Assembly: GCA_003696105.1 (NCBI GenBank) | Contig: RFGE01000022.1 | Location: 4,177 to 68,176 of the forward strand | Length of the DNA stretch: 64,000 nucleotides | Origin: Deltaproteobacteria bacterium | Lineage (GTDB): Bacteria > Myxococcota_A > Polyangia > Haliangiales > J016 | Direction: 5' to 3' | Shown: positions 7,899 to 59,182 of the stretch, piece after piece | Layout of the letters: the number at the start of each line of letters is the position of its first letter | Numbering within the stretch: the first letter of the stretch is position 1 | Made by a program: the position numbers and the translations under genes | The notes under the pieces: model-generated | Seen by the model: the letters and a program-made list of their open reading frames with translations, nothing else | Told to the model about the DNA's origin: nothing | Databases searched by the model: none

Positions 7899-8593
7899 CC
7901 GGACTGCAGGCTACCGTCTCCGTCGCGAAGCTGGCGCTGGCGCGCGCGCGCCGCGGGCGGCTGGCGTGGATCACGGCGGCGGTCCTGCTGGCGCCGGCCG
8001 GGCTCGCCGCCGCGATCGGCTCGCGGGATCGCGCGTGGGACGCGACGCTCGAGGCGTTGACCCTGCTCGTGGCGGTCGTGCCCGCCCTGTGGCTGGCCCC
8101 CGCGCTGGCGGAGGAAATCGAGGACGACATGGTGTCGTACCTGTGGTCGCGGCCGATCCCGCGCTGGTCGGTCGTCGCCGGCAAGTGGCTCGCGTTCGCC
8201 CCGTCCGTCGCCGCCGGCCTGGCGATCGCCACGGTCGCGGCACACTGGGCCGCGCTCGGCGCGATCGCGTCGGCGCAGCTGCCCGCCGCGGTGGCCGCGG
8301 TCGCCGTCGGGGCGGTCGCGGCGGCAGGCGCAGCCGCCGGCGTCGGCTCGATCGCGCCTCGCCACCCGACCACGGTGGCCATCGCATACCTGGCGCTGGT
8401 CGACCTGATCATCGGTCAGATTCCGTTTGCCATACAACAGTTGTCGGTGACGCACCACGTGCGGACGATCGCGCACGCGACCACCGCCGCGACGGCGGGC
8501 GCCAGCGCCGTGCGGGCGGTGGCGATCGCCGCCGCGTGGCTGGCGATCGCGGCGTTCCGCGCCGCGCGGGCCGAGCCCGGCGACCGGCGCTGA
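7895..8593 (+). CDS. ABC-2-type transporter permease (second copy)
   Basis: GTGA overlap. Hydrophobic 232 aa (AWITAAVLLAPAGLAAAIG..., YLWSRPIPRW). Confidence 0.75.
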   Translation: MTGLQATVSVAKLALARARRGRLAWITAAVLLAPAGLAAAIGSRDRAWDATLEALTLLVAVVPALWLAPALAEEIEDDMVSYLWSRPIPRWSVVAGKWLAFAPSVAAGLAIATVAAHWAALGAIASAQLPAAVAAVAVGAVAAAGAAAGVGSIAPRHPTTVAIAYLALVDLIIGQIPFAIQQLSVTHHVRTIAHATTAATAGASAVRAVAIAAAWLAIAAFRAARAEPGDRR

Positions 8594-8608
8594 CGGCGAG
8601 GCCGTCCC

Positions 8609-8715
8609 GCACGCCGCGGCAGGTCGCCTGCGCGCAGGCGGCTCCCGTGGCGCGGCCGCCGCGCACGCCGCGGCAGGGTCACCTGCGCGCCGGCGGATCC
8701 CGTGGCGCGGCCGCC
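8609..8715. repeat. ~55-bp GC-rich tandem repeat (about 2 copies) with internal hairpins between convergent genes
   Basis: GCACGCCGCGGCAGGTCGCCTGCGCGCAGGCGGCTCCC then GTGGCGCGGCCGCCGCGCACGCCGCGGCAGGGTCACCTGCGCGCCGGCGGATCCC then GTGGCGCGGCCGCC. GGCGGATCC...GGATCCGCC forms a 9-bp stem. It shares TGCGCGCAGGCGGCTCCC with 30708..30725. Confidence 0.6.
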
Positions 8716-8727
8716 GGATCCGCCCCG

Positions 8728-10374
8728 TCACCGCGGCCGGCCGGCGCGGTCGTGACGCGGCGCCGGCGCGCGCGGGCGGCCGACCCGTCGCGCGACCGCA
8801 TCGGCGAGTTGGGTCCACCACGCGGCGCGATCCGGGTGGTCGAACACCGCCGCATCCAAGGCCGCCCGATCGGCGCGGCGCACCTCGTCGGCGATCGGAC
8901 CGATCGGCCGGCGCGCGACCCGCTCGAGCGCCGTCGCCGCCGCCGGTGAGATGCGACGTGGGTCGACGACCGGCAGCGCGGCGGCTCCCGCGACCGTCCA
9001 CTCGAGGGCGCCCTCGCCCATCGACGCGCGCCCGAGCGACTCGATCGCCAGCGCGGTCCACGTCGAGTTGAGCACCGCCGCCAGCCGCGCCGCGGGCACG
9101 CCCGGCTTCGGCCGCACGGCGTAGACGCGCTGATCGCAGGCGATCGGCTCGGCGCAGCGGTGCTGCACGAACCGGTCGTGGTACGCCTTGGTGAAGAACA
9201 GCCGCGCGCGCTGCACCCGCAGCGCCCACCACGGATCGCGCGCGCGCAGCGTCCGCCGTGTGGCCACCTCCCGGCGCGACGCGAGATAGCGGCGCGCGCC
9301 GGGCAGCCGCGCGGCGCGGGCCGGGTCGACCGCGACGGCGACGAGCGGCGTCGCGCGCGGGTCGACGTCGATCCGGTCGGCCGGCCGTTTGAGCAGCGGC
9401 ACGAGCGCCTCGGGTTCGATGCCGAGCGCCGCCGCCCGCGCGCGCGGCAGGTAGAACACGTCGTTGGCGCCGGTCGTCGCGCCGCGCCGCACGTCCGCGA
9501 CCTCGCCGAGCGCGATCAACCGATCGCCGGCCGCCGCCGTGAACGCAAACCATGCGTCGGGCGCGGTGAGCAGCGCCCGCCACGCGCGCGGATCGTCTCC
9601 GGCGCGCACGTCGGCCACCGTCGCGAGCGAGCCGAGCGGGACCGCGGCGCGGGCGGTCGGCACGCGCAGCCGCGCGAGCGCGGTCGAACGCGAGTCGCGC
9701 GCGCCGCGCTCGAGCACGACGATCACCGCGTTGACCGCCGCGTCGGCGAACCAGCGCTCGCGCGGCGCGTCGACGACCGCGCGCACCGCCGCGTGGCGGC
9801 GAACGAACGCCCACAGCGTGTCGCCGTAGTCGGCGTCGACCAGCGCCGACGACACGACGAGCGCGACGCGGCCGCCGTCGGGGCGCGCGAACCGCAGCGC
9901 GCGCATCACGCACGCGGCGGCGAGATCGCCGCGCCGGACGACTCGATCGAGCGCGGCCGCCGGAGCGTCCGGCCAGTCCGCGGCCAGCCGTGCGCGCACC
10001 CGCGCGCGCGCCGCCGCCGGGAGCCGCTCGGCGCGCACGTACGGCGGGTTGCCGGCGACGACGTCGAACGGCGCGGGCGGCCGCGCGAACAGGTCGCCGG
10101 CGATCACGCGGGCGCCCGGCACGCGCGCGCGCGCGACCGCCGCGTGTGCCGGATCGAGTTCGATGCCGACGACCTGCGACGCGCCGGCGCGGCGTGCGCC
10201 GGCGAGAAACGCCCCGTCGCCGCAGGCCGGGTCGAGCACCCGCGCGCCGGGGCCGGCACCGGCGAGCGCGAGCGCGAGGTCGACGACGGCGGGCGGCGTG
10301 AACCACTGGCCGAGGTCGCGACGGCGGCGGGCGGCGGGCGCGGGCACGGCGTCATTATCGCGCCCGGCACCCAC
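8728..10374 (-). CDS. N6-adenine DNA methyltransferase (gamma-class, Eco57I/TaqI-like), solitary
   Basis: Motif I VLDPACGDGAFL, motif IV VAGNPPYV, and a ~300-aa C-terminal region (putative target-recognition domain). No nuclease gene is adjacent. Confidence 0.85.
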   Translation of the reverse strand: MGAGRDNDAVPAPAARRRRDLGQWFTPPAVVDLALALAGAGPGARVLDPACGDGAFLAGARRAGASQVVGIELDPAHAAVARARVPGARVIAGDLFARPPAPFDVVAGNPPYVRAERLPAAARARVRARLAADWPDAPAAALDRVVRRGDLAAACVMRALRFARPDGGRVALVVSSALVDADYGDTLWAFVRRHAAVRAVVDAPRERWFADAAVNAVIVVLERGARDSRSTALARLRVPTARAAVPLGSLATVADVRAGDDPRAWRALLTAPDAWFAFTAAAGDRLIALGEVADVRRGATTGANDVFYLPRARAAALGIEPEALVPLLKRPADRIDVDPRATPLVAVAVDPARAARLPGARRYLASRREVATRRTLRARDPWWALRVQRARLFFTKAYHDRFVQHRCAEPIACDQRVYAVRPKPGVPAARLAAVLNSTWTALAIESLGRASMGEGALEWTVAGAAALPVVDPRRISPAAATALERVARRPIGPIADEVRRADRAALDAAVFDHPDRAAWWTQLADAVARRVGRPRAPAPRHDRAGRPR

Positions 10375-10418
10375 GCCGGGCCGGCACCGGCCGGCGATCT
10401 ACGGTAGAGTCCGGGGCG

Positions 10419-10865
10419 ATGCCGATGCTCAAACCGGGCGACAAGGCCCCCGACTTCCAAGTCACCGCGCACGACGGCTCGACCGTGCGCCTGTCCGACT
10501 GCGCGGGCAAGCGCGTCCTGTTGTGGTTCTACCCGAAAGCCGACACCCCCGGTTGAACGATCGAGGGCAAGGGATTCCGGGACCGAATCCGCGAGTTCGA
10601 CAGCAAGAACACGGTCGTCTACGGCGTGTCGTTCGACACGGTCGACGAAAACCGCGCGTTCGCCGAAAAGTTTTCGTTTCCGTTTCTGCTGCTGTGCGAC
10701 ACGGACCGCACCATCGGCCTGGCCTATGGCGCCGCCGACGCGCCGGACGCGGGCTACGCGAAGCGCATCTCGTACCTCATCGGCCCCGACGGGACGATCG
10801 AACGGGTGTACGAGTCGGTCGACGTGAACGCACATCCGGCCCAGGTGCTCGCCGACATCGGATAG
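10419..10865 (+). CDS. bcp: Bcp/PrxQ-type peroxiredoxin with in-frame TGA (probable selenocysteine) at the peroxidatic position
   Basis: ATG 10419, then MPMLKPGDKAPDFQVTAHDGSTVRLSDCAGKRVLLWFYPKADTPG[TGA 10554..10556]TIEGKGFRDRIREFDSKNTVVYGVSFDTVDENRAFAEKFSFPF.... This is one continuous frame with the track ORF 10626..10865. The TGA aligns with Cys of the FYPKAxTPGC(T) motif. Confidence 0.8.
10561..10600 (+). promoter_or_regulatory. candidate bacterial SECIS hairpin
   Basis: Starts 5 nt after the TGA. Lower stem is TCGAG (10561..10565) with TTCGA (10596..10600). Upper stem is GGATTC (10572..10577) with GAATCC (10585..10590). The apical loop CGGGACC is G-rich. Folded by eye only. Confidence 0.4.
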
Positions 10866-11036
10866 GAGCGCCACGGCGCACAGGCGCGCCGGCGGAAGTG
10901 CCACGGGCGAGGGTCGGCGCACGCTCGCAGCGCACGAGGGCGCATATGAACGTGCGGTACCGGAAGGCGCGAGGGCGTACACCGGCGATCGCCGTCCGAT
11001 CGCGGCCGCAGCCAGTGGCTAGGCGCAACGTCCGGC
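10865..11036 (+). mobile_element. MITE-like element, copy A (degenerate 3' end)
   Basis: Collinear with 27521..27696 and 58342..58516 (TAGGAG...AGGCGCGCC...GGCGCACGC..GCAGCGCACGAGGGCGC...GATCGCC...GCAGCCAGTGGCTAGGCGCAAC). The 5' TA is part of the bcp TAG stop. The 3' end overlaps the last codons of the kinase gene. Confidence 0.65.
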
Positions 11037-12734
11037 GAGTCGTTCGCCTACCGCGGCGCCGGCGGGTGCGCGCTCGGCTGCGCCTGCGCGATAGGCCGGC
11101 AGCCAGATCGTGAATCGCGCGCCGCCGCCGTCGCGGTTGGCGGCGTGTAGCGTCCCGCCGGCGCGCTCGATCAACTGCCGCGAGATCCACAAGCCGAGCC
11201 CAGTCCCCTCGCCGGGAGGCTTCGTCGTGAAAAACGGCTCGAACAGATGGTCCATCGCGCCGGCCGCGATGCCCGGCCCGTCGTCGTCGACGTCGATCTC
11301 GACGCCGCCGCCTGCGGGGGCCGCGCGGACGACGATCGCGCCGGTGCGGCCGTCCATCGCGGCGCGCGCGTTGAGGATCAAGTTGACGAGGACTTGTGCC
11401 AGTTCGCCGGGATAGCCGGCGACACAGTCGACGCCGGCGGCGAGATCGACGCGAACCGAGGGTCCGGCGCGCAGCGCGGGCGCCGTCGTCTCGATCGCAT
11501 CGTCGACCGCGGCCGCGACGGACACCGGGCCCGGCGGCCCCGGATCGCGCCGGCTCGCGCGGGACAGTCGCGCGGCGATGCGCCGGATGCGCTCGATCGA
11601 CCGCTCGAGCGCTGCGACGTCCTCTCGCTCGTCGTCGCGCGCGCGGTGCAACAACAACGCGGCGCTCGCCGACACGACCATCAACGCGTTGTTGATCTCG
11701 TGCGCGATGCTCGACGCCATCACGCCCACGGTCGCGAGTTGTTCCTGATGGGCCAACGCGCGCACCATCTCGACCCGCTGCCGCGCGTGGCGCCGCTCGG
11801 ACCACAGGAGCCACGCAGCCGCGCCAGCGACCAGCAGGATCGCGACCGCGGCGATCGCGCCGAGCCGGTGCGCGGCCGCCGTCACCGGGGCGGCGAGCGC
11901 CGCGTCGCTCGCCGCGGCGACGACCGACCACGCGCCGCCCGTCCCCGGCACGGCGGCGACGGCGCGGGTCGCGGCGCCGTCGCGCGGCGGAGCGGGTCGC
12001 GCGCCGGCGGCGTACAACACGGCGCCATCCGGGCCGACGACCCACGCGCCGCTGTCGTCGCCCGCGTCGCCCTCGCCGCGCAAGTCGGCGAGCGCGGCGG
12101 CGGCCAGGGCCGCGGCGTCGATGTTGACCGACAGCCGCAGGCCCGACGCCAGCGGCGTGTCGAACGTGAGGTCGCCGCCGTGGCGGAGACATGCGTCGCA
12201 CACGCCGTAGCCGCCGCCGTGCGCGGCGACCCGGTGCCGGTGGCCGGCGTGCGCCGCGGCCGCCGCGGCCGGGGCGAGGTCGTCGGTCGCGAGCACCCGC
12301 CCCCGCCCGTCGTGCACCAGCAGGTGAATGCCGGCGGCGCGATCGTCGTCGGTGAGCCACGCGGCCAGCCGCGCGTGCAGCGCGGCCGGGTCGGTCGTGG
12401 CATCGACCTCCGCCGCCGCGCGGGCCGTCGGGTCGCCGAACCGGTGCCGGACGTCCGCGAGCGTCGCACCGATGCGCGCCGCCGCCTGGCGAGCGAGGCG
12501 CGCTCGGTCGCGCGCGGCGAACTGGCGGGCGACCGCCGCCGTGTGGTGTGCGCCGGCGGCCGCGACGGCCGCGGCCGCGAGCGCGGCCGCGGCGAGCAGA
12601 GCGACCGGCAACGACAGACGGCGGAGTTGCGACGGCGCTGCGACCACAGCCGCACGCGATGCAAGCGCGCTGCCAGGCAAACCCCTCGATACGGCCGCGT
12701 GGCCGCTGCCCGCCGCCGGCGCCTGCGTTTCCAA
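11019..12734 (-). CDS. sensor histidine kinase (TM/periplasmic sensor, HisKA, HATPase_c)
   Basis: H-box SIAHEINNAL, N/G boxes LILNARAAM, DDGPGI, GTGLGLWISRQLIERAGG. The N-terminus has a TM segment (LPVALLAAAALAAAAVAAAGA). The start is uncertain. Confidence 0.88.
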   Translation of the reverse strand: METQAPAAGSGHAAVSRGLPGSALASRAAVVAAPSQLRRLSLPVALLAAAALAAAAVAAAGAHHTAAVARQFAARDRARLARQAAARIGATLADVRHRFGDPTARAAAEVDATTDPAALHARLAAWLTDDDRAAGIHLLVHDGRGRVLATDDLAPAAAAAAHAGHRHRVAAHGGGYGVCDACLRHGGDLTFDTPLASGLRLSVNIDAAALAAAALADLRGEGDAGDDSGAWVVGPDGAVLYAAGARPAPPRDGAATRAVAAVPGTGGAWSVVAAASDAALAAPVTAAAHRLGAIAAVAILLVAGAAAWLLWSERRHARQRVEMVRALAHQEQLATVGVMASSIAHEINNALMVVSASAALLLHRARDDEREDVAALERSIERIRRIAARLSRASRRDPGPPGPVSVAAAVDDAIETTAPALRAGPSVRVDLAAGVDCVAGYPGELAQVLVNLILNARAAMDGRTGAIVVRAAPAGGGVEIDVDDDGPGIAAGAMDHLFEPFFTTKPPGEGTGLGLWISRQLIERAGGTLHAANRDGGGARFTIWLPAYRAGAAERAPAGAAVGERLAGRCA

Positions 12735-17964: not shown

Positions 17965-19340
17965 CAGCGCAGCTCCGCCGGCCGCTCGTCGGCGGTCAAG
18001 ATCAAGATCGCCTCGGCGGCGGTGATCCGGCCCACGTCGTCGCCGTCGACCAGCGCGCGCGCCAGCGGCGCGAGGTCGACCTGCGCGTCCAACCGCCGAA
18101 GGGCGATCGCGGCGTCCACCCGCAGCGCGCTCGCGCCGAGCTGCTCGACCAGCGCGTCAACCGCGCGGGTGTCCCCGAGCGCAGCCAGCGCGTGGGCCGC
18201 GCCGACGCGGTCGCCCGCGGTGAGGATGTCGGCCAGCGCGTCGCGCGCCTCGTCGTAGCCGGCGGCGCCGAGGGCCACTGCCGCGCGCGTGCGCGCAACG
18301 CGCGCCGAACCCGCGAGGGCTTCGCGCAGCACCGCGAGCCCGGCGTCGTCGCCGAGCAGCGCGAGCGCCGCGGCGGCCCCGAGCCGGTGCGTGCGCACGC
18401 GCAGCATCGCGCGCAGCGCGGTGCGGCCGGCGTCGTTGCCGAGCCGCGCGAGCGATCGCGCGGCGTCGAGGCGCACGTCGCGGCTCGGATCGCGCAACGC
18501 CGCCTCGAGCGCCGCTACGCCGCGCGCGTCGCCGGACCGGGCGAGCACGTACGCGACGCGCAGGCGCGCGGCCGGGCTCGGCTCCTCGTCGAGCCGCCGG
18601 CCGAGCGCGGCGAGCGCGTCCGGATCGCGCACGCGGGCGAGCGCGAGCGCGGCGTCGCGCGCCAGCCGAGGCGACGGCGACCGCATCAGCTCGCGCAGCG
18701 CGCCGACGGCGGCGTCGCGCAACACCGCCGGATCGACGCGCGCGTCCGCGGCCGGCGGCGGGGCGGGCTCCGGCGCCGGCGCCGGCGCGACGGGCGCATC
18801 CGTCGCGGCGGTCGCATCCGTCGGAGACGACGGCGACACCGCGTCGACGATCGCGATCGCCATGCCCCCGACGCAGACCGCCCCGGCGATCGCGAGCGCG
18901 CGGCGCTTGTTTCCGCGCCGGCCGGCCGCCGGCGACGCCGCACCGCGCTCCTCCGCGTCGATGCGCGCCTGCGCGCGCTCGTCCCACGTGTGCCCGCGCC
19001 CGACGACCGGGGCCGACACCGGTGACGCGGGCTCGTCGTCCCACAAGTCGTCGACGTCGCGCGGCGAATCGGCGACCCGCGCGACGGCCTCGTCGGCGCG
19101 CTCGTACCACGCCACGCTCATCGCGGTCTCCTCGGCGCGCGCCGGCGTGTTTTCGGCGCGCACCTCGATCGGCGGTGCGCGATCGGCGTCCGCGGCCGCG
19201 TCGCCGTCGGCGCAGGCCGCCGGTGCGCCGTCGGCACAGGCTGCCGAGCAGTACGTGTACACGTGCCCGCCTCGCACCCGCGCGACCGGCGCACGCGCGG
19301 GATCGATCGGACGCTGGCAGGTGGGACAGACGGCGGTCAC
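17964..19340 (-). CDS. TRASH-type zinc-ribbon / single-TM / HEAT (PBS-lyase-like) repeat protein
   Basis: GTG 19340 overlaps the upstream stop (GTGA). The N-terminus CPTC-x22-CSAAC fits TRASH (C-x2-C-x19-22-C-x3-C). TM segment ALAIAGAVCVGGMAIAIVDAV. The C-terminus has repeated RDP..RL.AA.ALARLGD..A..AL HEAT-like units. Confidence 0.75.
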   Translation of the reverse strand: MTAVCPTCQRPIDPARAPVARVRGGHVYTYCSAACADGAPAACADGDAAADADRAPPIEVRAENTPARAEETAMSVAWYERADEAVARVADSPRDVDDLWDDEPASPVSAPVVGRGHTWDERAQARIDAEERGAASPAAGRRGNKRRALAIAGAVCVGGMAIAIVDAVSPSSPTDATAATDAPVAPAPAPEPAPPPAADARVDPAVLRDAAVGALRELMRSPSPRLARDAALALARVRDPDALAALGRRLDEEPSPAARLRVAYVLARSGDARGVAALEAALRDPSRDVRLDAARSLARLGNDAGRTALRAMLRVRTHRLGAAAALALLGDDAGLAVLREALAGSARVARTRAAVALGAAGYDEARDALADILTAGDRVGAAHALAALGDTRAVDALVEQLGASALRVDAAIALRRLDAQVDLAPLARALVDGDDVGRITAAEAILILTADERPAELR

Positions 19341-20410
19341 GGGAACACCAACACGTTGTCGGCGCCGTGGCGCGCGATCAGGTCGTCGATGTAACGCAGC
19401 GCGTAGTCGCGCCGCGCCATCAGCGCCGCGACCTCGCTGTCGTCGAGCAACTCGTGAAACGGCCCCGGATCGTCGGCGAGCGCGGCGCGCACCGCCTCCT
19501 CGTCGAGCGCGCGCAACGCCGCCACCAGCGACCGCGAAAACTTCTGCACCTTCATCAGGTAGGAGCGGACCTTTTCCGCCCCGGCGGGCTGCCGCCCAAA
19601 CGACAAGGTGTTGTCCATGTAGTACAAAAACGACCCGTCCGGCGACGAGCGGACGTTGCCGCCGCTCCACCGATCGAGATTGTTGATCAGAAAGTCGAAC
19701 ACCACCATGTCGCTGATCTGCGCGACGAGCCGCGCCTCCCGGTACGGCACCGGCTCGCCGATGGTCAGATAGCGGTGCCAGGTCACGACGCCGTCGACGC
19801 TGTCGACCGGGTAGCCGTCGATCCTCGGCTTGGCGATGCGCGGGATCCACCAGGACAGCTCGCCGACCACCCAGCCGTCGTTCTGGATCATCTCCGCTCG
19901 CAGCCGCGGCGCAATGTAGGCGCTGTCCGGTTCCAGGTGCGACAGAATGTCGTCGACGCGGAACATGCGACCGATCGCCGGCGCCACGGTACTCAACCCG
20001 AGCAGCCGGTTGATCCGGTACGCCGCCACCTCGCGGCGCGGCACGGTCTGCCAGTTGGTCTGGCGCGGCTTGAACGCGGCGCGCGCGCCGTTGTCGAAGT
20101 CGATCCGCAGCGAGATCGACGACCCGCCGAGGTTGAACGCCACGCGGTCGATCTCGCCGGTGCGCAACGGCGCGAGCAGCTGGTCGTCCGCCACGCCGCG
20201 AAACAGGCCGAGCGCGCGGCGGACCGGGCCGAGGCTCGGCCGCTCCGGCCAGCGGATTTCGACCCGCTCGGCCGGAGCCGCGGGCGCGCGGCCGGCATGC
20301 GCCCAGCGGCCCCGAAGCTCGCGCACGCCGGCGGTCCCCGCCAGCGCGAGGCCGGCGGCGAGCGAGACCCCGACGGCGAGCTCGACGGCCACACAGCTCC
20401 CGAGGCGCAC
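19337..20410 (-). CDS. secreted Fam20/Four-jointed-like protein kinase homolog
   Basis: Signal/TM N-terminus (VAVELAVGVSLAAGLALAG). Motifs AAFKP, REVAAYRINRLLGLSTVAPAIGR, ISDMVVFDFLINNLDR and YYMDNTLSFG are collinear with the Fam20C kinase-core motifs as I recall them. Confidence 0.7.
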   Translation of the reverse strand: MRLGSCVAVELAVGVSLAAGLALAGTAGVRELRGRWAHAGRAPAAPAERVEIRWPERPSLGPVRRALGLFRGVADDQLLAPLRTGEIDRVAFNLGGSSISLRIDFDNGARAAFKPRQTNWQTVPRREVAAYRINRLLGLSTVAPAIGRMFRVDDILSHLEPDSAYIAPRLRAEMIQNDGWVVGELSWWIPRIAKPRIDGYPVDSVDGVVTWHRYLTIGEPVPYREARLVAQISDMVVFDFLINNLDRWSGGNVRSSPDGSFLYYMDNTLSFGRQPAGAEKVRSYLMKVQKFSRSLVAALRALDEEAVRAALADDPGPFHELLDDSEVAALMARRDYALRYIDDLIARHGADNVLVFP

Positions 20411-24687: not shown

Positions 24688-26232
<1,545 letters not shown>

Positions 26233-26363
26233 CACCGCGCGGCGCCGGCGGCGGCCGGCCCTCCGATCCCGCGCTGACACCGCGCGGCGCTGGCGGCGGC
26301 CGGCCCTCCGATCCCGCGCTGACGCCGCGCCGCGGTCGACGGGCGCGCGCCCGGCCGGCTGCG

Positions 26364-26756: not shown

Positions 26757-27521
26757 ATGGCGCACCGCACTGTCCTGTGCCTGTCGTCGGCGGCGGCCCA
26801 CGCGGCCGCGATCGCCGCCCTGATCGCCGCCGGCGCCTGGCGCGTCGCCAAGCTGCCGGCCGAGTCCACCCCGCCCGTCTACCTGGCGATGGCCGTCCCG
26901 CCCGCGCTTCCTGCGCCCGGCGGCGGCGACGGCAAGCCGCCGCCACTGCGCCGCGCACACGGCGGTGCGGGCCGCGCAGACCCCGCCCGCAAGCAACGGG
27001 CCGCCGGCGTCCAGCCGCTCGCGGTCGAGGAGGACGCGGCGACCGCGGCAGGCGGCCGCGACGCAGACGGCGACGTCTGGGGGGACGACGCGTGGGGCGT
27101 CGCCGGCGGCGACGGGCGCGGGCTTCACATCGTTCCGGGGACCTGCCGCAACCCGCCCTGCGGCGTCGCCGGCATCACCGAGGTCGCGGTCCCCGATCCC
27201 CCCGAGCCGCGCGACCGCATCGTCCCTCCCGAGCTGCTCCGCGGCCGCCGCATCGCCGGCTCCGACCGGATCGAACCGCCGGACGCCGTGCGGGTCGCCA
27301 TGGCGCGAGCCGGCGTCGACCGCGTCCGCGCCAGCGTGCGACTGTGCATCGACTCGCGCGGCCGCGTGCGCGATCTCGCCGTGTTGCGAAGCACGACGTA
27401 CCCGGCGTACGACGCGACGCTGATCCGCGCGATGCGCGCGTGGCGATATCGCCCGTACGAAATCGATGGTACACCCGTGCCCGCGTGCACGGTCGTCCAG
27501 GTCCTGTATCGGTTCCGCTAG
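26757..27521 (+). CDS. TonB C-terminal domain protein
   Basis: N-terminal TM ([16 protein letters not shown]), a Pro-rich spacer, and a C-terminal TonB_C-like region (VRLCIDSRGRVRDLAVLRSTTYPAYDATLIRAMRAWRYRPY). Confidence 0.75.
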   Translation: MAHRTVLCLSSAAAHAAAIAALIAAGAWRVAKLPAESTPPVYLAMAVPPALPAPGGGDGKPPPLRRAHGGAGRADPARKQRAAGVQPLAVEEDAATAAGGRDADGDVWGDDAWGVAGGDGRGLHIVPGTCRNPPCGVAGITEVAVPDPPEPRDRIVPPELLRGRRIAGSDRIEPPDAVRVAMARAGVDRVRASVRLCIDSRGRVRDLAVLRSTTYPAYDATLIRAMRAWRYRPYEIDGTPVPACTVVQVLYRFR

Positions 27522-27696
27522 GAGGCGGTTGCGTATAGGCGCGCCAGCGAGGTTGCGAGATGCGAGGCGAGGTTCGGCGCACGCCCGTAGCGCACGAGGG
27601 CGCGTATAATCATACGGTACCGAAGGGCGCGAGGACGTACGCCGAAGATCGCCCGCCGATCGTGACCGCAGCCAGCGGCTATGCGCAACAGCCTCC
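27521..27696 (+). mobile_element. MITE-like element, copy B (best preserved; 21-bp TIRs, TA flanks)
   Basis: The 5' GGAGGCGGTTGCGTATAGGCG (27521..27541) matches the reverse complement of 27676..27696, GGAGGCTGTTGCGCATAGCCG, at 18 of 21 positions. TA lies on both sides (27519-20, 27697-98). 176 bp. Confidence 0.75.
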
Positions 27697-28169
27697 TATC
27701 CGTCCCGCTGGTCCGCATCGTGTCCGGCGGTCAGACCGGCGCCGACCGCGGCGGCCTCGAGGCGGCGATCGCGCTGGGCATCGAGCACGGCGGCTGGTGT
27801 CCGCGCGGCCGGCGCGCCGAGGACGGCCGCATCCCGGACCGCTACCGGTTGCGCGAGACCGAGTCGGCCGACTATGCACAGCGGACGGAGCGCAACGTGC
27901 TCGACAGCGACGGCACGGTGCTGTTCACCCGCGGCGCGCCGACCGGAGGCAGCGCGCTCACCGCCGCGTTGGCGCGCCGCCACGCCAAGCCGCTGTTGCA
28001 CGTCGATCTGGCATCGACGGACGAGCGCACCGCCGCGTGCGCGCTGCGCGCATGGCTGGCCGACCGCGGGATCGCGACACTCAACGTCGCTGGCAGTCGC
28101 GAAAGCGGCTGCCCCGGCATCTCGGACGCGGTCCGGCGCATCGTCACCGCGGCCGTCGCCGCGCCGTGA
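27681..28169 (+). CDS. SLOG-superfamily protein (circularly permuted YpsA / 'molybdenum carrier' family)
   Basis: VSGGQTGADRGGLEAAIALGIEHGGWCPRGRRAEDGRIPDRYRLRETESADYAQRTERNVLDSDGTVLF is diagnostic of that family. ATG 27681 lies inside the MITE 3' TIR, so the start is uncertain. Confidence 0.8.
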   Translation: MRNSLLSVPLVRIVSGGQTGADRGGLEAAIALGIEHGGWCPRGRRAEDGRIPDRYRLRETESADYAQRTERNVLDSDGTVLFTRGAPTGGSALTAALARRHAKPLLHVDLASTDERTAACALRAWLADRGIATLNVAGSRESGCPGISDAVRRIVTAAVAAP

Positions 28170-28210
28170 CCCCGAGGCGCCGCGCGGGCCGCGCGCCCGG
28201 TCCCCACCGC

Positions 28211-29869
28211 CTACGGCATCTCCATTCGCGACACGGCGACGACGCCCGCGCGATCGGCGTAGACCGCGACCTCGATCGTGCCGAACGCGGCCGCGATGCG
28301 GTCGACCAACCGCACGACGTTCGGGTCGGGCGTCCCCATCGCGAACGCGGACGACAGAAGCTTCATGTAGCGGCCGTAGTCGTACGCGAACGCGACCAGC
28401 GGTCCGTCGTGACGCCGCTTGGCGCCGAGAAACTGCACCATCCGGTCCACCGCGCCGGGGCCGAGCGACAGGCCGATCCAGTCGCCGCGGCGCGCCAGGT
28501 GCGCCTTGCCGGGAATCGGCAGCCCCAGTTGTACCTCCACCGGTTTGCCATCGGCCGGCAGGTCGACGCCGGCGAGGACCGGCAGCGCGGTCGCCAGCTT
28601 CGCGAGCAGAGCGTCTCCGGCGGTCGTGCCGACCACGGCGAACCCGCTGCCGGTGGGCGACGCGCCGTCGAGCGACAGCGACTGCACCGCGAACGCACCG
28701 CCGCGGATCGCCGCGACCTCGGCCGGCACCGTGTCCGCCGCGATCTGTCGGGCGGCGTCGTTGAGCTCCGCCAGATCCGCGCACTGATAGGGTGCGGCCT
28801 GCACCCGCCGAGCCCAGCTTTGCATCGACTGGACGACCGCGTTCATGTCGACGGCAACTCCCATCGCGAACAGGGGCGAGCTGTGCGCCAGCGCCCGCAT
28901 GTCGGGTGCGTCTGCCCGCCACCCGGCGAGATCGCGCGCCAGGTCGTCGCGCAGTTCGACGACGACCAGCGTGTCCAACGCGTGCGCGTCCGCTCGCGTG
29001 TAGCCGAACACGCCCCGCGGCACCGACGCCGCGATCGCCTCGATCTCCTTGCGGCATTCCGCGGACAGGTCGGCGGACTCCCCCCACGCCCCGAGCCCGC
29101 CGTCGGCCAGCGCCCACCGGACGACGGCGCGCGCATCGATGTAGCCGGCCGCCACGCCGAGCAGGCCGTAATTGGCGATCGCGTCCCGCAGCGCCCCGGT
29201 GTCCGCCAGCGACCGCGCGGGCCGACGCGCCCCCGTGAGTACGGGCAACACGTCGTCGGCCGCGCCCGCGGGCAGCACCGCCATCACGAGATCGCCGCCG
29301 GCCACGCCGACCGCGAACAGCCCCACGTCCTCGACCGGCCACGTCCGCAGCGACGCGCCGCCGACCGCGCGCGGCGCCGCGCCCCAGCCGGCCGCGTCGA
29401 GTCGTGCGAACAGCGCCTCGGTCTTGGCGGGATCCTTCAGCGCGACCCGCAGCGCCAGCGCCGGCCCGATCGCGTACACGGCGTAGTACGCGGGCGGCAG
29501 CGCGAGCCCCACGCGCTGCAAGCCGTCCGGCGACAGGTCGCCGCCGAGCGCGTCGTAGACCGCGCGGGCGATCGGATCCGCGGGCGGCTCCGCCTCCGCC
29601 GCCATCTTCGCGATCGGCGCCCACACCGCGCCGAACCGAGCGGCGGCGTCGTCGGGCAGCGGCCTCAGCCCCGCCATCACGAACGGCGTGTCCGCCGGGA
29701 TCAGCTTCAACATCTCGGGCTGCGGCACCTGCGCGGCCGGCCGCGGCGTGTACAGCGGCGGCTCGGACGGGTCGGCCGGCTCGCCGTCGGCCGGCTTGCC
29801 GTCCTTCGAGCACGCGGCCAACCACACCGCCGCGCACGCCACTGCCACTGCCAGCTTGCGTTGCAACAT
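28211..29869 (-). CDS. lipoprotein, unknown function
   Basis: Strong SD (GAGGAGGAGC) 1-10 nt upstream of ATG 29869. MLQRKLAVAVACAAVWLAACSKDG (lipobox). 552 aa, no motif recognised. Confidence 0.75.
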   Translation of the reverse strand: MLQRKLAVAVACAAVWLAACSKDGKPADGEPADPSEPPLYTPRPAAQVPQPEMLKLIPADTPFVMAGLRPLPDDAAARFGAVWAPIAKMAAEAEPPADPIARAVYDALGGDLSPDGLQRVGLALPPAYYAVYAIGPALALRVALKDPAKTEALFARLDAAGWGAAPRAVGGASLRTWPVEDVGLFAVGVAGGDLVMAVLPAGAADDVLPVLTGARRPARSLADTGALRDAIANYGLLGVAAGYIDARAVVRWALADGGLGAWGESADLSAECRKEIEAIAASVPRGVFGYTRADAHALDTLVVVELRDDLARDLAGWRADAPDMRALAHSSPLFAMGVAVDMNAVVQSMQSWARRVQAAPYQCADLAELNDAARQIAADTVPAEVAAIRGGAFAVQSLSLDGASPTGSGFAVVGTTAGDALLAKLATALPVLAGVDLPADGKPVEVQLGLPIPGKAHLARRGDWIGLSLGPGAVDRMVQFLGAKRRHDGPLVAFAYDYGRYMKLLSSAFAMGTPDPNVVRLVDRIAAAFGTIEVAVYADRAGVVAVSRMEMP

Positions 29870-29989
29870 CGCTCCTCCTCGTTGTCGGCCGGCGGATGTG
29901 CCGGCGATCCCCGGCGGATCGCCGCCGAATCGCGCCCGGCCCGGTCGCCGCGCGAACCGCCTGTCAGACTCGCCGCCTATATACCGCAC

Positions 29990-30637
29990 ATGCGCGTCTA
30001 TTTCATTGGAAGCCACGCCACCGGCAAGACGACGCTGTGCCGCTACGTCAGCCACCGCTATCGCCTGCCGATGATCACCGAGGTCGCCCGCCTCATCCTC
30101 GCCGAACAGGAGACCAACCTCGACGCGCTGCGCACCGACATGGACCTGGTCGCAGCCTACCAACGGCGCGTGTTCGAGCGGCAAATGCAGGTCGAGCGCC
30201 AGCACGACGGCTCGTTCGTGTCCGACCGCGCGTTCGACAACCTCGCCTACGCCGCCGAACACACCACCATCCTCGCGGAACTGCTCGGCGACCCGCGGTT
30301 CGACGAGTACATGGAGTGGGTCGCCGGCGGCGTCGTGTTCTTCTTGCGGCCGCACGCGTCGCTGTTGCGCGACGACGGCGTGCGCGCCGGCGTGTCGTGG
30401 GACGAGGTCGTCCGCATCGACGGGATGGTCAAGCTGCTGCTCGAGCAGTACCGCATCAAGTACCTGCCGGTCGAGAGCGTGTCGATGCAGGAGCGCGTGC
30501 GGGCGGTCGAGTTCGTGTTCGACCGCCTCGGCATCGCGGACCGCCCCGACGACACTCCGACGGCGCGCGAACGCCGGCGCGAAAGCGGGCGCGGAAACGG
30601 GCGTGGCAACGGCCACGACGTGCCCGCGTTCGTCTAG
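29990..30637 (+). CDS. P-loop ATPase (AAA_28 / NadR-kinase-like)
   Basis: MRVYFIGSHATGKTTLC (Walker A) and a later ...SFVSDRAF motif. 215 aa with a Gly/Arg-rich tail. Confidence 0.75.
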   Translation: MRVYFIGSHATGKTTLCRYVSHRYRLPMITEVARLILAEQETNLDALRTDMDLVAAYQRRVFERQMQVERQHDGSFVSDRAFDNLAYAAEHTTILAELLGDPRFDEYMEWVAGGVVFFLRPHASLLRDDGVRAGVSWDEVVRIDGMVKLLLEQYRIKYLPVESVSMQERVRAVEFVFDRLGIADRPDDTPTARERRRESGRGNGRGNGHDVPAFV

Positions 30638-30725
30638 GCAGCCGTTGCGCATCGGCGCGCCTGCTAGGTGCCGGGTTTGTCGCGCGCCGGCGGCGGGACC
30701 GCAGTTGTGCGCGCAGGCGGCTCCC
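30637..30725 (+). mobile_element. short (~89 bp) variant of the MITE-like element, copy D
   Basis: The 5' GGCAGCCGTTGCGCATCGGCGCGCC resembles the copy B 5' TIR. The 3' end GACCGCAG..TGCGCGCAGGCGGCTCCC is its imperfect inverted partner. The 5' TA is part of the ATPase TAG stop. Confidence 0.45.
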
Positions 30726-30783
30726 GCTCGCCCGGCGGCCGTGATAACGTCGCGTCTGCGCTCGCGTTTTACTCGTGGGGCCG

Positions 30784-40621: not shown

Positions 40622-40900
40622 ATGTACCTGGGACGCGTCATCGGCACGGTCGTCGCTCAGCGCAAGTACGCAGGGCTCGAGGGGCGCAAGTTACTGCTCG
40701 TGCAGCCCGTAGACGACGCCGGTACCGCCACCGGCCGCCCCGAGGTGGCGGTCGACACCGTCCAGGCGGGCCCGGACGACCTCGTGTTCCTGGTCGGCTC
40801 GCGCGAGGCCGCGCTCGCCCTCGATCCCTCGTTCGTTCCCGTGGACGCCGCGATCGTCGGCATCGTCGACCAGGTCGCCAGCGAACCGGTGACGCCATGA
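40622..40900 (+). CDS. bacterial microcompartment vertex protein BMC-P (EutN/CcmL family)
   Basis: [29 protein letters not shown]...[21 protein letters not shown]...DAAIVGIVD is the canonical EutN/CcmL pattern. 92 aa. Confidence 0.9.
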
Positions 40901-41169
40901 AGGTGTGCCGCGTTACGGGCACCGTCGTGTCCACGATCAAGCATGGCGTCTACGAAGGACGTCGCCTGATGGTCGTCCACCCCGAAGACGGCGGCGCGAG
41001 CTTTTTGGCCGTCGATACGGTGCAGGCCGGTCCCGGCGATCGCGTGCTCGTCATGCGCGAGGGCAACGGCGTGCGCCAGATCCTGGGCATCGGATCGCAG
41101 GTGCCGATTCGCTCGCTGATCGTCGGCATCGTCGACGCCGTCGACCGCGCCGACGGCGACACGCCATGA
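40897..41169 (+). CDS. bacterial microcompartment vertex protein BMC-P (second copy)
   Basis: ATGA overlap. [29 protein letters not shown]...[21 protein letters not shown]...[11 protein letters not shown]. Confidence 0.9.
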
Positions 41170-41927
41170 CCGCCGACCGCCGACAAGCCGACGCCGTCGT
41201 CGAGGTGGCGCGCGCGCTTCACGCGCGCGGGTGGGTGGCCAACCACGACGGCAACGTGACGGTCCGGCTCGGAGCCGACCGGTACCTCGCAACCCCGACC
41301 GCCACGTCGAAAGCGAAGGTCACGCGCGACTCTCTGCTGGTCGTCGACGGCGAGGGCAAGCGCGTCAGTGGCCGCACGCGGCCGTTTTCCGAGATCAACC
41401 TGCATCTGGCGATCTACGCGGCGCGGACGGACGTCGGTGCCGTCGTCCACGCTCACCCGCCACACGCGACGGCGCTGGCGTGCAGCGGTTCCGATCTGCT
41501 CGCGCGCCCGTTCATCGCCGAGGCGGTCGTGTCCCTCGGGCCGGCGATCCCGACGGTGCCGTTCGCGCCGCCCGGACCGGCCGCCGCGCGCGCCGTGGCG
41601 GCCGTCGCCCGCGACGTCGACGCCGCATTGCTCGGCAACCACGGAGTGCTCACGTGGGCCGCCGACGTCGAGCTGGCCTACTTGCGGATGGAACTCGTCG
41701 AACACCTCGCGCGCATCGCGATCGCGGCGCAGGCGGTCGGCGGCGTTCGCCCGCTCCCGGCCGACGCCATCGGGCCGCTGTTGGCGGCTCGCGCGAGAGC
41801 CGGGCTGGGCGCGGCGGCCGACCGCGCCGCCGCAGCGCAATCGCCCGCGCCGGTGGCCAGCGCGAGCACCGACGCATTGGCCGCGATCGTGCGAGAGGAA
41901 GTCCTGCGCGCCCTCGGCCGCCACTGA
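41166..41927 (+). CDS. class II aldolase/adducin-family protein with C-terminal encapsulation-peptide-like helix
   Basis: ATGA overlap. GNVTVRL...EINLHLAIY...[11 protein letters not shown]...LGNHGVLTW are class II aldolase motifs. An Ala/Pro linker is followed by [20 protein letters not shown]. Confidence 0.88.
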
Positions 41928-46229: not shown

Positions 46230-47954
46230 TCAGAATCGCGCCTGGAGCGTGAGATTGAAACCGAGCTGGTTGAAGTCGTCGAACTCGTACTGGAGAAGGT
46301 CCTCCGGTCCGTCGCGGCGCAGGCGCGTGCGGTTCGGGTCCCGGCTATAGTAGACGTCGAGGATCGACGCGAATCGATCGTCGGCGAAGTCGAGCCGCGC
46401 GGTAAACTTCGCGGCGAGCTGCGGCAGCGCCTTTTCGCCGGGCGGCAAGATGGTGTAGTCGCCTTCGGCCCGAATCACGTACACCGCCTCACCCGCGCTC
46501 ACTTGGTCGACCTCGACGATCGGTTTCGGCGACGCGATCGTCGCGGGCAGTTCGAGCCCGAGGACGATACCCGTGGTGAGATTGGGACCCGGGTAGTGGT
46601 GGTCGACGCCGGCGGCCGCGAAGAAGTTCGGCGTGAGTTCATAGTCGTCGGCAAAGTCGACGTACGACGGCAATGACGGCGCCGAGTGCAGGATATACGC
46701 CGCGTCGCGGTATTGCAGGTCGACACGAAACCGGGTGTAGTCGAGCTTGGCGCGAACGTTCACGTCGCCGGCGAACGCGTACTGAATCGTCGTCGTCCCC
46801 GGCGCGGCCGGATCCTTGAGCGTCTGTCCGAGCACCGTCGCCTCCGACGCGACCATCCACGCGAATCCGCCGGGGTACTCGTCCTTTTGGCGAAACAGCG
46901 TGCGAATGCTCTCGAGGTCGTTGCGGTAGAGCTTGTAATCGATCGACGACCCGACCGGGATCCCCTGCTGCAGCGCCACTTGCACCGATGCGCCGAAGAG
47001 TTGGACGTGCTCCGATCGCACGTCTTCCTGTTCGTTCGTACCGCGGTCGAAATAGCCGCCGTTGACCTCGACCCGCAGCATGTCGGTTACATCGACGCCG
47101 GCACCGGCCAGGTACGCGAATACGGATCGCTCCTCGTCGATCGTGTCGTCGACGAGCACCGCGGACTTCGCGCCGACGAACGCGTACACGCGGTCGTTCT
47201 CCCACTGCAGCTTGACGCCCGGGACCGCGTTTTTCGTGCGCTGGTACTCGTTCGACCCACCCCACGACAGCCGATAGCTGTACCCGAGGCGAAACCGATC
47301 CGACGACGTCGGAAACGCGGTGAGCGACACGCGCGCGGGCGACCGCCGCTCGGCGTCGGCCCACCGGGCGACGCGAATGTACGAGCCGGCATCCGACAGC
47401 CGGATGTCGCGCTCGGCTAGGTCGTTGACGCGCAGCACGAGCGCGCCTTCGACGTCCCAGTTGCCGGCGGAGTGGCGCTTGTACAGCACGGCATGCGACA
47501 GGGTTTCGAACCCCGAAAACCGCGTGTCGTAGTTGTCGAAAAACAGCGTGCCGAGTTGGTTTGGCCGGCCGAACCGATAGCCGGGCACGTTCGGCACGTG
47601 CGTCTCGTTCGGATCGGCCAACACGTTTTCGTTCGTGAACGTGAAGTTCAACCGCGTGTCGATGAAGTCACTGTGCGACTCCGGCGCGGCTGGGCGCTTC
47701 GGCGCGGCTGCTCGCTCCGGCGCGGCTGCTCGCTCCGGCGCGGCTGCTCGCTCCGGCGCGGGCGCCTCCGGCTCGGCGCCGCCTCCCGGCGCGGGCGCCT
47801 CCGGCTCGGCGCCGCCTCCCGGCGCGGGCGCGGCGGCCCACGGCGCAGCGTCGTCCGGCCGCTGAGCCGTGGGCGACTCGGACTCGCCGGCCGCCTGCGC
47901 GAACACGGCGGCCGACCACAACACGATCGCGGCAACAGGGACAATGCGGTACAC
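46230..47954 (-). CDS. outer-membrane beta-barrel protein with repetitive Pro/Ala/Glu N-terminal region
   Basis: Signal peptide MYRIVPVAAIVLWSAAVFAQA, alternating beta-strand pattern, and a C-terminal ...LGFNLTLQARF (terminal Phe). Confidence 0.75.
   Translation of the reverse strand: MYRIVPVAAIVLWSAAVFAQAAGESESPTAQRPDDAAPWAAAPAPGGGAEPEAPAPGGGAEPEAPAPERAAAPERAAAPERAAAPKRPAAPESHSDFIDTRLNFTFTNENVLADPNETHVPNVPGYRFGRPNQLGTLFFDNYDTRFSGFETLSHAVLYKRHSAGNWDVEGALVLRVNDLAERDIRLSDAGSYIRVARWADAERRSPARVSLTAFPTSSDRFRLGYSYRLSWGGSNEYQRTKNAVPGVKLQWENDRVYAFVGAKSAVLVDDTIDEERSVFAYLAGAGVDVTDMLRVEVNGGYFDRGTNEQEDVRSEHVQLFGASVQVALQQGIPVGSSIDYKLYRNDLESIRTLFRQKDEYPGGFAWMVASEATVLGQTLKDPAAPGTTTIQYAFAGDVNVRAKLDYTRFRVDLQYRDAAYILHSAPSLPSYVDFADDYELTPNFFAAAGVDHHYPGPNLTTGIVLGLELPATIASPKPIVEVDQVSAGEAVYVIRAEGDYTILPPGEKALPQLAAKFTARLDFADDRFASILDVYYSRDPNRTRLRRDGPEDLLQYEFDDFNQLGFNLTLQARF
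47700..47819. repeat. in-gene tandem repeats (18 bp x3, then 33 bp x2)
   Basis: CGGCGCGGCTGCTCGCTC x3 (47700..47753) and CGGCGCGGGCGCCTCCGGCTCGGCGCCGCCTCC x2 (47754..47819). They encode ERAAAP x3 and APAPGGGAEPE x2 on the minus strand. Confidence 0.9.
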
Positions 47955-54970: not shown

Positions 54971-55062
54971 CCGGCGCCATCGGGCGCGCGGAGCCGGGCG
55001 AGACGTTCCGCGCCATCTCGGGGCACGACGGCGCCGGCTCCCGGGTGCGCCGGCTGGATCGA
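54971..55062 (+). repeat. degenerate tandem copy of the last 92 bp of the SpoIID-like gene
   Basis: 54971..55062 aligns base-for-base with 54879..54970. By hand alignment there are about 14 mismatches and no indels. Confidence 0.85.
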
Positions 55063-57974: not shown

Positions 57975-58341
57975 CGACTCACCGTGTTTTCTTCGCTTTG
58001 TCCAGGGTATAGCAACGCCGAGCGCGCGCCACAAGCGCACCGAAGTGGACGGCCCGCGGCGCGCGGCCGGCCGCGGTAGGTACGCAACATCGCAGGCGGA
58101 CGGCGCCGCCGAACGGTGAGACCCGAGCGGGTCCGTCGCGGTTGGCCGCACCGCCGGCGACGCGCGACGCGCGCCGCGATCCGGCAGACGCCCGCACCGG
58201 CGAGGAAGTCGACGGGGCGATGCCCGCCGCGCGGAAGGCGCCCGCGGCGAGGGGCCCCGGCGGAACCGTCCCGCCGCACCGAGGACGGCGCGCGCCCGCG
58301 ACGGCGCAGCCGGCGCCGCCGACAGCGACGCCCGCGCGCTG

Positions 58342-58516
58342 CGAGGCGGGTGCGCCGAGGCGGGCCAACGACGGTGCGAGATGCGAGGCCGCGTGCGGCG
58401 CACGCCCGCAGCACACGAGGGCGCGTAGCCCCACGCGCGACCCCACCGCGCGACACCGTACGCCGAAGATCGCCCACAGGTCGCGACCGCGGCCAGCGGC
58501 CACGCGCGACAGCCTC
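58342..58516 (+). mobile_element. MITE-like element, copy C (degenerate 5' TIR)
   Basis: Collinear with copy B along its length, except for a replaced 31-bp centre. The 3' end CAGCCTCC plus TA forms the lexA stop (TAG on the minus strand, 58517..58519). Confidence 0.65.
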
Positions 58517-59182
58517 CTAGCCCATCTTGCGGTAGACGCCGACGACGACGCCGAGGATATCGACCGAGCGCATGTCGCGGCGCCGGACGTAAATTGGATC
58601 CATGGAGGCGTTCGCCGGCTGGAACCGGATCACGTCTCCCTCCGGGTAGTAGCGCTTGACCGTCGCCTCGCCCTCGATCATCGCGACCACCGTATCGCCG
58701 CGCTGTGCGGTCGGCGTCTTCTTGACGAACACGTAGTCGCCGTCGTGTATGCCGTCTTCGATCATCGAGTCGCCGACGACGCGGAGCGCGAACACCTCCC
58801 GGGTGTTGCCGATGAAGAACCGGTCGACGACGACCGTGTCCTCGGCCTGCTCGACCGCCAACAGCGGCTCGCCCGCGGCGACGCGGCCGAGCAACGGCAC
58901 CTCGACGAACGACTCGCCCAGACCGACCGGGGCCGGCTTGCGCGCCGACGCGATCGGCGTCACCGGCCGCATGGCGCGCGACTTGAGATCCTCGCGCCGC
59001 AGGTAGCCCTTTTTCTCGAGCGCCTTGAGGTGGTCGTTGACTCCGTTGGTCGACCGGATGCCGAAGTGCTCGCCGATCTCGCGCAGCGTCGGCGGATAGC
59101 CGCGCTCCGCGATCGACGCGGTGATGAAATCGAGGATCTGCTGTTGGCGTTTGGTCAGCGTGTCGCGAGTTTCTAGTTGCAT
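58517..59182 (-). CDS. lexA: LexA repressor
   Basis: N-terminal wHTH ([12 protein letters not shown]...[10 protein letters not shown]) and a C-terminal S24 peptidase (VVGDSM...[13 protein letters not shown]). Confidence 0.95.

Follow-up and report, generated by a model that had tools for sequence, protein, structure and literature searches.

A probable MITE-like foldback repeat family at gene ends in a Myxococcota contig, with a long target duplication at one copy

[quoted passage not shown] The Correia elements (NEMIS) of Neisseria measure 100–160 nt, have terminal inverted repeats of about 26 bp, yield transcripts whose ends pair into a stem-loop, lie mostly between genes and close to them, and can fuse to neighbouring reading frames; the RUP elements of Streptococcus pneumoniae, which depend on IS630-Spn1, are small, non-coding and bounded by terminal repeats, and are presumed to move in trans (PMC2229807). 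Both resemble in these respects a repeat described here from a single 64-kb window (positions 4,177 to 68,176 of contig RFGE01000022.1, assembly GCA_003696105.1; 72–73% G+C), to which all repeat-family results below refer unless a wider search is named. The three full copies found in the window, each of about 176 nt with terminal inverted repeats of about 21 nt and palindromic throughout, probably belong to an old, non-autonomous, MITE-like family of foldback DNA transposons. The copies are inserted DNA, absent from the orthologous sites of relatives, and the only copy with both ends intact carries a target duplication of 10–14 nt and not the 2-nt TA duplication expected of an IS630-type element.

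Three full copies and one probable short relative were recognized:

27521..27696, forward strand: copy 2, the best preserved; 176 nt between the duplicated target, 180 nt with the flanking TAs (27519–27698); covariance-model score 207 bits
10863..11038, forward strand: copy 1; 146 bits; 75% identical to copy 2; right tip decayed
58340..58519, forward strand: copy 3; 152 bits; left tip decayed (TGCGAGG)
30635..30725, forward strand: probable short relative; a hairpin of about 90 nt, the left tip of which (TAGGCAGCCGTTGCGCATCGGCG) and the AAA_28 stop codon, TAG, overlap

The first-pass annotation of this DNA had described the copies as collinear and in one orientation, and three methods agree with it: a repeat search groups 10856–11041, 27516–27701 and 58337–58522 as one family, an nhmmer profile recovers the full copies at E = 7e-45 to 3e-57, all on the forward strand, and a covariance model scores them at 146–207 bits, the next match in the window reaching 17 bits. 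Run over the whole window with its filters off, the covariance model gave no extra copies above noise. Pairwise identities among the full copies are 78% (copy 2 versus copy 3), 75% (copy 1 versus copy 2) and 64%, and their G+C content is 66–77%. For the short variant that had also been proposed, the tip and the fold stand, as its left tip shares the terminal-repeat pattern with three mismatches (0 such matches expected) and its hairpin has a predicted energy of −50 kcal/mol; however, it is indistinguishable from noise by nhmmer (E = 1.2) and by the covariance model (14 bits, E = 0.4), and is therefore graded only as a probable relative of the full copies.

The terminal repeats are clearest in copy 2:

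27521..27541, forward strand: left terminal inverted repeat, GGAGGCGGTTGCGTATAGGCG; matches the right repeat at 18 of 21 positions; 0 matches to the pattern in shuffled sequence
27676..27696, reverse strand: right terminal inverted repeat; reverse complement GGAGGCTGTTGCGCATAGCCG

From 27519 to 27698 the sequence reads TAGGAGGCGGTTGCGTATAGGCG...CGGCTATGCGCAACAGCCTCCTA, and the repeat ends taken with TA read TAGGAGG...CCTCCTA. A 23-mer consensus of repeat plus TA, TAGGAGGCNGTTGCGYATAGSCG, matches the window four times at up to three mismatches (both ends of copy 2, the right end of 58340–58519, and 30635–30657) and never in 100 shuffles; the end sequence GGAGGCNGTTGCGYATAG would be expected also on any full-length partner insertion sequence. 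The match of 18 in 21 positions reported earlier agrees with our reading of the sequence, but the complementarity is not confined to 21 bp, and the element is imperfectly palindromic from end to end: when its left half is aligned with the reverse complement of its right half, the two are identical in 65 of 94 columns for copy 2 and in 54–56 of 97–98 for copies 1 and 3. Because copy 2 resembles copy 3 (78%) more than its own two arms resemble each other (about 69%), the asymmetry of the arms is ancestral and the orientation of the element is well defined. The TA flanks, which had been taken as bracketing the element, are present on both sides in copy 2 (27519–20 and 27697–98), but on the left only in copy 1 and on the right only in copy 3.

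Copy 2 is predicted to fold into one hairpin, with 64 pairs in the minimum-free-energy structure, −106.5 kcal/mol and a shuffle z of −7.9, and the reverse strand folds in nearly the same way. RNAalifold gives a consensus hairpin of 56 pairs common to the three copies. Such a fold could mean that the repeat is a selected structured RNA or DNA element (a stabilizer of the 3' untranslated region, a terminator-like hairpin or a protein-binding site) that stands after stop codons and was spread by recombination or past mobility, and this reading would account for the stability of the hairpin, its retention in three copies, the best conservation of the inner stem (88% and 78% invariant in its two arms) and the location of every copy right after a stop codon. 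We nevertheless hold it to be distinctly unlikely. Compensatory change is seen in only 2 of the 56 pairs, and copies 1 and 3 have lost many of the pairs; Rfam 15 gave no match at the gathering score over the window and none at E ≤ 1 over 27400–27800; no sigma-70-like promoter or intrinsic terminator pattern was found at any copy; copy 3 is antisense to the gene that it abuts, whereas the other copies are sense; and the element is missing at the orthologous sites in all relatives. A perfect TATAAT lies at the apex of copy 2 and is not kept in the other copies.

The comparison of empty sites, which the first-pass annotation had called for, was made at two loci, TonB-like/cpYpsA (copy 2; L057–L061) and the 3' flank of lexA (copy 3; L007–L016), in relatives 70–83% identical at the protein level, and at both the relatives are without the element. 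In the two closest at the copy 2 locus, L057 (cpYpsA 71% identical) and L058 (75%), the TonB-like gene overlaps cpYpsA by 37 nt with no spacer; in the more distant L059, L060 and L061, a different arrangement is found, in which the upstream gene overlaps cpYpsA by 4 nt, and the element is again absent. Collinearity of the left flank of copy 2 with L057 and L058 extends to the TonB-like stop codon, the C-terminus being of equal length in all three when counted from a conserved Cys, and that of the right flank starts 14–15 nt before that stop codon and continues onward. A segment of 14 nt is accordingly present twice:

27507..27520, forward strand: left target duplicate, TATCGGTTCCGCTA; encodes the C-terminus (YRFR) of the TonB_C-like protein and bases 1 and 2 of its stop codon
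27697..27710, forward strand: right target duplicate, TATCCGTCCCGCTG; now SVPL of cpYpsA

When 27521–27710 (190 nt, that is 176 + 14) is excised in silico, the joined sequence aligns without gaps to L057 and without gaps through the junction to L058, whereas the excision of 178 nt that a TA duplication would require forces 12 nt of gaps against both relatives. The two duplicates match at 11 of 14 positions, and all three differences are synonymous in the cpYpsA frame, with TCG GTT CCG CTA on the left and TCC GTC CCG CTG on the right both translating as SVPL; read in the TonB frame, the right duplicate would give YPSRW, as against YRFR-stop on the left. Together, these two facts imply that each duplicate has been retained by the gene that now uses it. 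The 14-nt duplicate both starts and finishes with TA, and the flanking TAs make its boundaries ambiguous, so that the insertion may be read as 176 + 14, 178 + 12 or 180 + 10, with a duplication of at least 10 nt in every reading. Since 190 nt were inserted with a 14-nt repeat, the two flanking TAs are the last bases of the left duplicate and the first bases of the right one.

The earlier assignment to an IS630/Tc1-mariner type with a TA target-site duplication is not upheld by this result, in that 190 nt and not 178 nt are inserted relative to both L057 and L058. That assignment holds that a MITE with GGAGGCNGTTGCG-type ends was mobilized by an IS630/Tc1-mariner-type transposase, which inserts at TA with a duplication of TA only; the extra 12 nt at copy 2 would then be an unrelated secondary duplication. 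It has in its favour the TA on both sides of copy 2, the TA at the stop-abutting tip of each copy, the symmetric TAGGAGG...CCTCCTA ends and the TAs that bound the 14-nt duplicate. Yet two independent events at one spot are less parsimonious than one, the 12-nt gaps of the 178-nt excision have no counterpart at the junction of the 190-nt one, none of the window genes scanned has a Pfam transposase match or was recognized as an IS630-family gene, and TA is too plentiful in the window (see below) to account for insertion at a stop codon in four of four cases. We therefore regard it as unlikely, and because the feature of a TA-only duplication failed, the family is not filed here as an IS630-type MITE.

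Copy 2 touches both of its neighbouring genes:

27519..27521, forward strand: TAG stop of the TonB_C-like gene (26757–27521), on the element's left tip; counted from the conserved Cys, the genes of relatives stop at the same codon
27681..27683, forward strand: ATG of cpYpsA (27681–28169), within the right terminal repeat; residues 1–6, MRNSLL, are encoded by the element
27485..27487, forward strand: probable ancestral GTG start of cpYpsA, now left of the element

Public annotation uses the same cpYpsA start (P0121, 162 aa, 100% identical), and the Pfam cpYpsA domain begins at residue 13. The N-terminus in the window reads MRNSLL-SVPLVRIVSGG, in which MRNSLL derives from the element and SVPL from the right duplicate, whereas the cpYpsA proteins of relatives begin MLGDAHHLPHALTRIVSGG or MHGGSLPVPHALTRIVSGG, the latter in L058. 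The empty site reconstructed from the GTG at 27485 reads VHGRPGPVSVPLVRIVSGG, and its length to the SGG motif is the same as in the MHGGSLPVPHALTRIVSGG of L058. To judge from these sequences, the original start of cpYpsA and its first eight codons appear to have been stranded beyond the element and replaced. The insertion would have entered the 37-nt overlap of two translationally coupled genes, where the duplication of the target preserved the C-terminus of the TonB-like protein and the SVPL segment of cpYpsA, and an ATG carried by the element took over from the stranded start. In the predicted fold, the TAG at 27519–21 makes up the stem base, and the ATG is paired with 27534–27536. Read-through RNA would form a very stable hairpin, with about 15 bp of one helix between the upstream stop and the start of cpYpsA, and a ribosome terminating at the TAG could open the base of the hairpin beside the ATG, so that the ancestral coupling might be partly restored.

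The other copies also lie at gene ends:

10863..10865, forward strand: TAG stop of the bcp-like peroxiredoxin gene (AhpC/TSA), at the left tip of copy 1
11019..11021, reverse strand: stop of the histidine kinase gene (11019–12647/12734, HisKA and HATPase_c), inside the right repeat of copy 1
58517..58519, reverse strand: TAG stop of lexA (58517–59182), at the right tip of copy 3
30635..30637, forward strand: TAG stop of the AAA_28 gene (29990–30637), overlapped by the left tip of the short copy

In all, five genes end in a terminal repeat (bcp, histidine kinase, TonB-like, AAA_28 and lexA) and one, cpYpsA, starts there. Copy 1 takes up all of the DNA between bcp and the histidine kinase gene, which are convergent, and its repeats stop both; the last five codons of the histidine kinase gene, GGA CGT TGC GCC TAG (GRCA and the stop), are element sequence. 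Copy 3 directly follows lexA, runs antisense to its transcription and leaves 365 nt of further spacer before the next gene. Its locus is also present, at 99.88% identity, in an independent Logan assembly of SRR7905024 (L006). The lexA genes of relatives likewise have TAG as their stop, either at the same codon or at the one before it, followed by a flank without the element; the insertion of copy 3, too, sits exactly on a stop codon that was already there. In one of these relatives (L007), about 4 kb (7418–11486) containing Peptidase_M78, DUF4411, aminotransferase and DUF6206 genes separate lexA from a TonB_C gene, which makes the 3' flank of lexA a variable spot in this group.

The adjacency of four copies to a TAG stop codon had been pointed out in the first-pass annotation, and we find it at 10863–65, 27519–21, 30635–37 and 58517–19. 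The explanation then offered, that TA is rare in this genome outside stop codons, is a weak one: in the window, TA is under-represented (631 observed versus 1188 expected), but about 50 TAs lie in intergenic DNA outside the elements, as against about 14 TAG or TAA stops on a rough gene map. If non-coding TA sites were used uniformly, four insertions out of four on the TA of a stop codon would be expected by chance with a probability of about 0.002. The tetranucleotide CTAG is 14-fold under-represented (11 occurrences versus 157 expected from base composition), with five of the 11 in or at element copies and three of them at element tips; CTAG as the target was considered and is not supported, since only the single base before TA in each tip CTAG comes from the flank. 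The tip consensus TAGGAGGCNGTTGCGYATAG, read inward, offers TAG in two of its three frames, both closed within 20 nt. Placement on stop codons might reflect either a context preference of the transposase or selection for tips that regenerate a stop in a genome whose genes are often adjoining or overlapping. A further reading, which we consider unlikely, would make the element a specialist of gene boundaries, which targets the TA of TAG stops, has stop-bearing tips and an outward-directed internal ATG and duplicates 10–14 bp, features that would together allow it to enter even an overlapping, coupled gene pair with the loss of neither gene; its hairpin would bring stop and start together, and its transposase would be of a type not yet linked to MITEs.

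Two observations concern the genes beside copies 1 and 2. The bcp-like peroxiredoxin gene (10419–10865) has an in-frame TGA at 10554–10556, at the position of the catalytic Cys (KADTPG*TIEGKGF); with Cys put in for TGA, the protein matches AhpC-TSA at E = 5e-33, and a hairpin, GGATTCCGGGACCGAATCC, lies at 10572–10590, 15 nt after the TGA. Judged by its sequence, the gene probably encodes a selenocysteine peroxiredoxin with a bacterial selenocysteine insertion sequence; a scan of the window for tRNA genes found tRNA-Leu only. To the right of copy 2, a 2.6-kb segment (28170–30770) between cpYpsA and a gene for a 2816-aa TPR protein holds a 543-aa lipoprotein-like gene on the reverse strand and the AAA_28 gene, and the short copy lies at its right edge; in L057, a TPR-like gene follows directly after cpYpsA.

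As to coding capacity, six-frame translation found no frame open in all three copies, a 5-nt insertion or deletion shifting the frame of copy 1, which rules out a hidden small protein gene and bears out the earlier statement that the element encodes no transposase. The 543-aa gene at 28211–29842 was considered as a transposase and rejected, having a lipoprotein-type signal peptide, no flanking repeats and no match in Pfam, NCBIfam, PADLOC or PDB. An integron attC site was likewise rejected, as the order GTTGCG...CGCAAC is opposite to RYYYAAC...GTTRRRY and no integrase is nearby. No Y1-transposase gene (RAYT) was found among the window genes. This last result bears on a REPIN-like explanation, by which the element would consist of two inverted REP-type units moved as single-stranded DNA by a RAYT of IS200/IS605 type with no target duplication. 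The palindromic form of the whole element and its extragenic location beside gene ends suit this explanation, and so does the single orientation of the copies in a window where the cumulative GC skew declines over nearly the entire length, as expected within a single replichore. However, the target duplication at copy 2 fits no duplication-free mechanism, three of three copies in the same orientation carry a p of only 0.25, and typical REPINs are shorter than 176 nt; we consider it very improbable.

The host is an uncultured Myxococcota lineage near Kofleriaceae, its LexA being 100% identical to a protein from a metagenome-assembled genome of a Deltaproteobacteria bacterium, the next-best match being 83% identical and its named relatives being Kofleriaceae. 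A 24-mer conserved in the three full copies, GCGCACGCNCGNAGCNCACGAGGG, was used as a search pattern against 185,579 species-representative genomes, JGI metagenome records and IMG/VR, none of which includes the source genome, with 1, 4 and 0 matches, respectively, all of them attributable to chance and without likeness to the element outside the pattern. Two more scans of viral sequences, with a terminal-repeat pattern and a right-arm pattern, yielded 40 loci, none of them a real copy; a concatenated six-frame translation of the full copies found nothing at E ≤ 10 among 5.8 billion proteins; blastn of the element against plasmids gave short chance matches only; and an nhmmer search of 93 kb of the nearest relatives' contigs came up empty. 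Another 5.2 kb beyond the window, reached via the LexA contig of SRR7905024, contains no copy. The family is apparently restricted to its lineage and previously undescribed, although its kind, MITE-like, is already known.

Of the generic features of prokaryotic MITEs, a length below 500 bp, the lack of a conserved open reading frame, terminal repeats and absence at orthologous sites are found in this family, and flanking direct repeats are seen at copy 2 alone, with 10–14 nt (PMC10969869); as to dispersal, the 64 kb hold three full copies and one probable short one. It is on these grounds that we consider a MITE-like foldback transposon the probable identity of the repeat. The element would have been moved in trans by a transposase that recognizes its repeats and makes cuts staggered by at least 10 nt, and copies may survive at gene boundaries because their tips restore a stop codon. 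Identities of 64–78% and decayed tips in two of the three full copies indicate that the family is probably no longer mobile. Duplications of 10–13 bp are typical of IS4-family elements, which offers a lead only.

Several points weigh against a MITE-like transposon. The known copies number just three or four, all within one window of one metagenome-assembled genome, and the region of copy 2 is known from a single assembly, a look-up in Logan assemblies having given no match for its gene. Copies 1 and 3 and the short copy show no flanking duplication above chance (p = 0.39, 0.32 and 0.65, respectively); this fits their old age, and the length of the duplication is in consequence that of one copy in one assembly. 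An apparent direct repeat near copy 1, TCGCCGACATCGG / TCGCCTACCGCGG, lies apart from the element and lacks significance. A duplication of 14 nt is unusually long, and a separate 12-nt duplication beside a TA duplication could in principle produce the same sequence. Among the window genes scanned there was no autonomous partner and no Pfam match to a transposase or integrase, and eight genes have no family match of any kind. Finally, the inner stem (alignment columns 58–89 and 110–136) is 88% and 78% invariant versus 61% and 53% for the termini, which is unlike a decaying transposon and hints at some constraint.

The window contains other features apart from the repeat family. Tandem repeats occur at 26188–26334 (a 45-nt unit repeated about 3.3 times at 95–96% identity, beginning 45 nt before the stop codon of a response-regulator/GAF/HD gene, 24688–26232, and extending past it), at 54877–55060 (a 92-nt tandem duplication of 88% identity across the stop codon of a SpoIID-like gene, 53288–54970), at 47679–47768 (18-nt repeats inside an open reading frame at 46230–47924 on the reverse strand, with no Pfam or NCBIfam match) and at 117–208 (18-nt repeats inside the ribosomal protein L19 gene, 91–576, reverse strand). 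Two adjacent genes of EutN/CcmL-type microcompartment vertex proteins, followed by a class II aldolase gene, lie at 40622–41927, and a 357-aa protein encoded at 19337–20410 on the reverse strand matches the C-terminal domain of Fam20C (Golgi casein kinase) at E = 2.5e-9.

If the MITE-like reading is right, these copies add a family of small mobile repeats in an uncultured lineage of myxobacteria that has been little studied. Copy 2 is an unusually clean natural case, in which the overlap of two genes was duplicated, one C-terminus was left intact, and the start and first residues of the other gene were replaced by element sequence that is annotated as coding. It also illustrates that flanking TAs and inverted repeats are insufficient for a call of IS630 type, the empty sites having revealed a much longer duplication. 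Should the placement on stop codons hold genome-wide, it would provide a useful case of target choice or selective filtering in a compact genome of 73% G+C.

Set against known systems, the family differs from each in some respect. Correia elements target TA and duplicate it, are AT-rich, contain a site for integration host factor and number hundreds of copies, whereas the present element shows a duplication of 10–14 nt at its one informative copy, has a G+C content of 66–77% and shares no sequence similarity with them; RUP shares its repeats with a known IS630-family element and has TA in its targets, whereas a TA-only duplication failed here (PMC2229807). REPINs and the REP-RAYT system are alike in being extragenic hairpin repeats that depend on a transposase encoded elsewhere, but REP units are of 20–40 nt, produce no target duplication and are expected to flank a RAYT gene, of which none was found among the window genes (PMC2817692). 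ERIC/IRU and other enterobacterial units are imperfect palindromes of 100–170 nt in transcribed intergenic regions, some of them fused to reading frames to which they contribute peptide, as here, but they belong to a different phylum, are present in many copies per genome and have no sequence similarity to this element (PMC2759123, PMC3184786). In short, the family is of an ordinary, MITE-like kind, and what is out of routine is the long target duplication and the donation of a start codon to cpYpsA, both read from copy 2, and the placement on stop codons, which like the other points is drawn from three or four copies. We know of no report of consistent placement exactly on stop codons for ERIC/IRU units. 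The MIRUs of Mycobacterium are tandem units of 46–101 bp that form no inverted-repeat hairpins and are not regarded as transposons, but within operons they occupy the spaces between genes and overlap the upstream stop and downstream start with their ends, just as copy 2 does between the TonB-like gene and cpYpsA.

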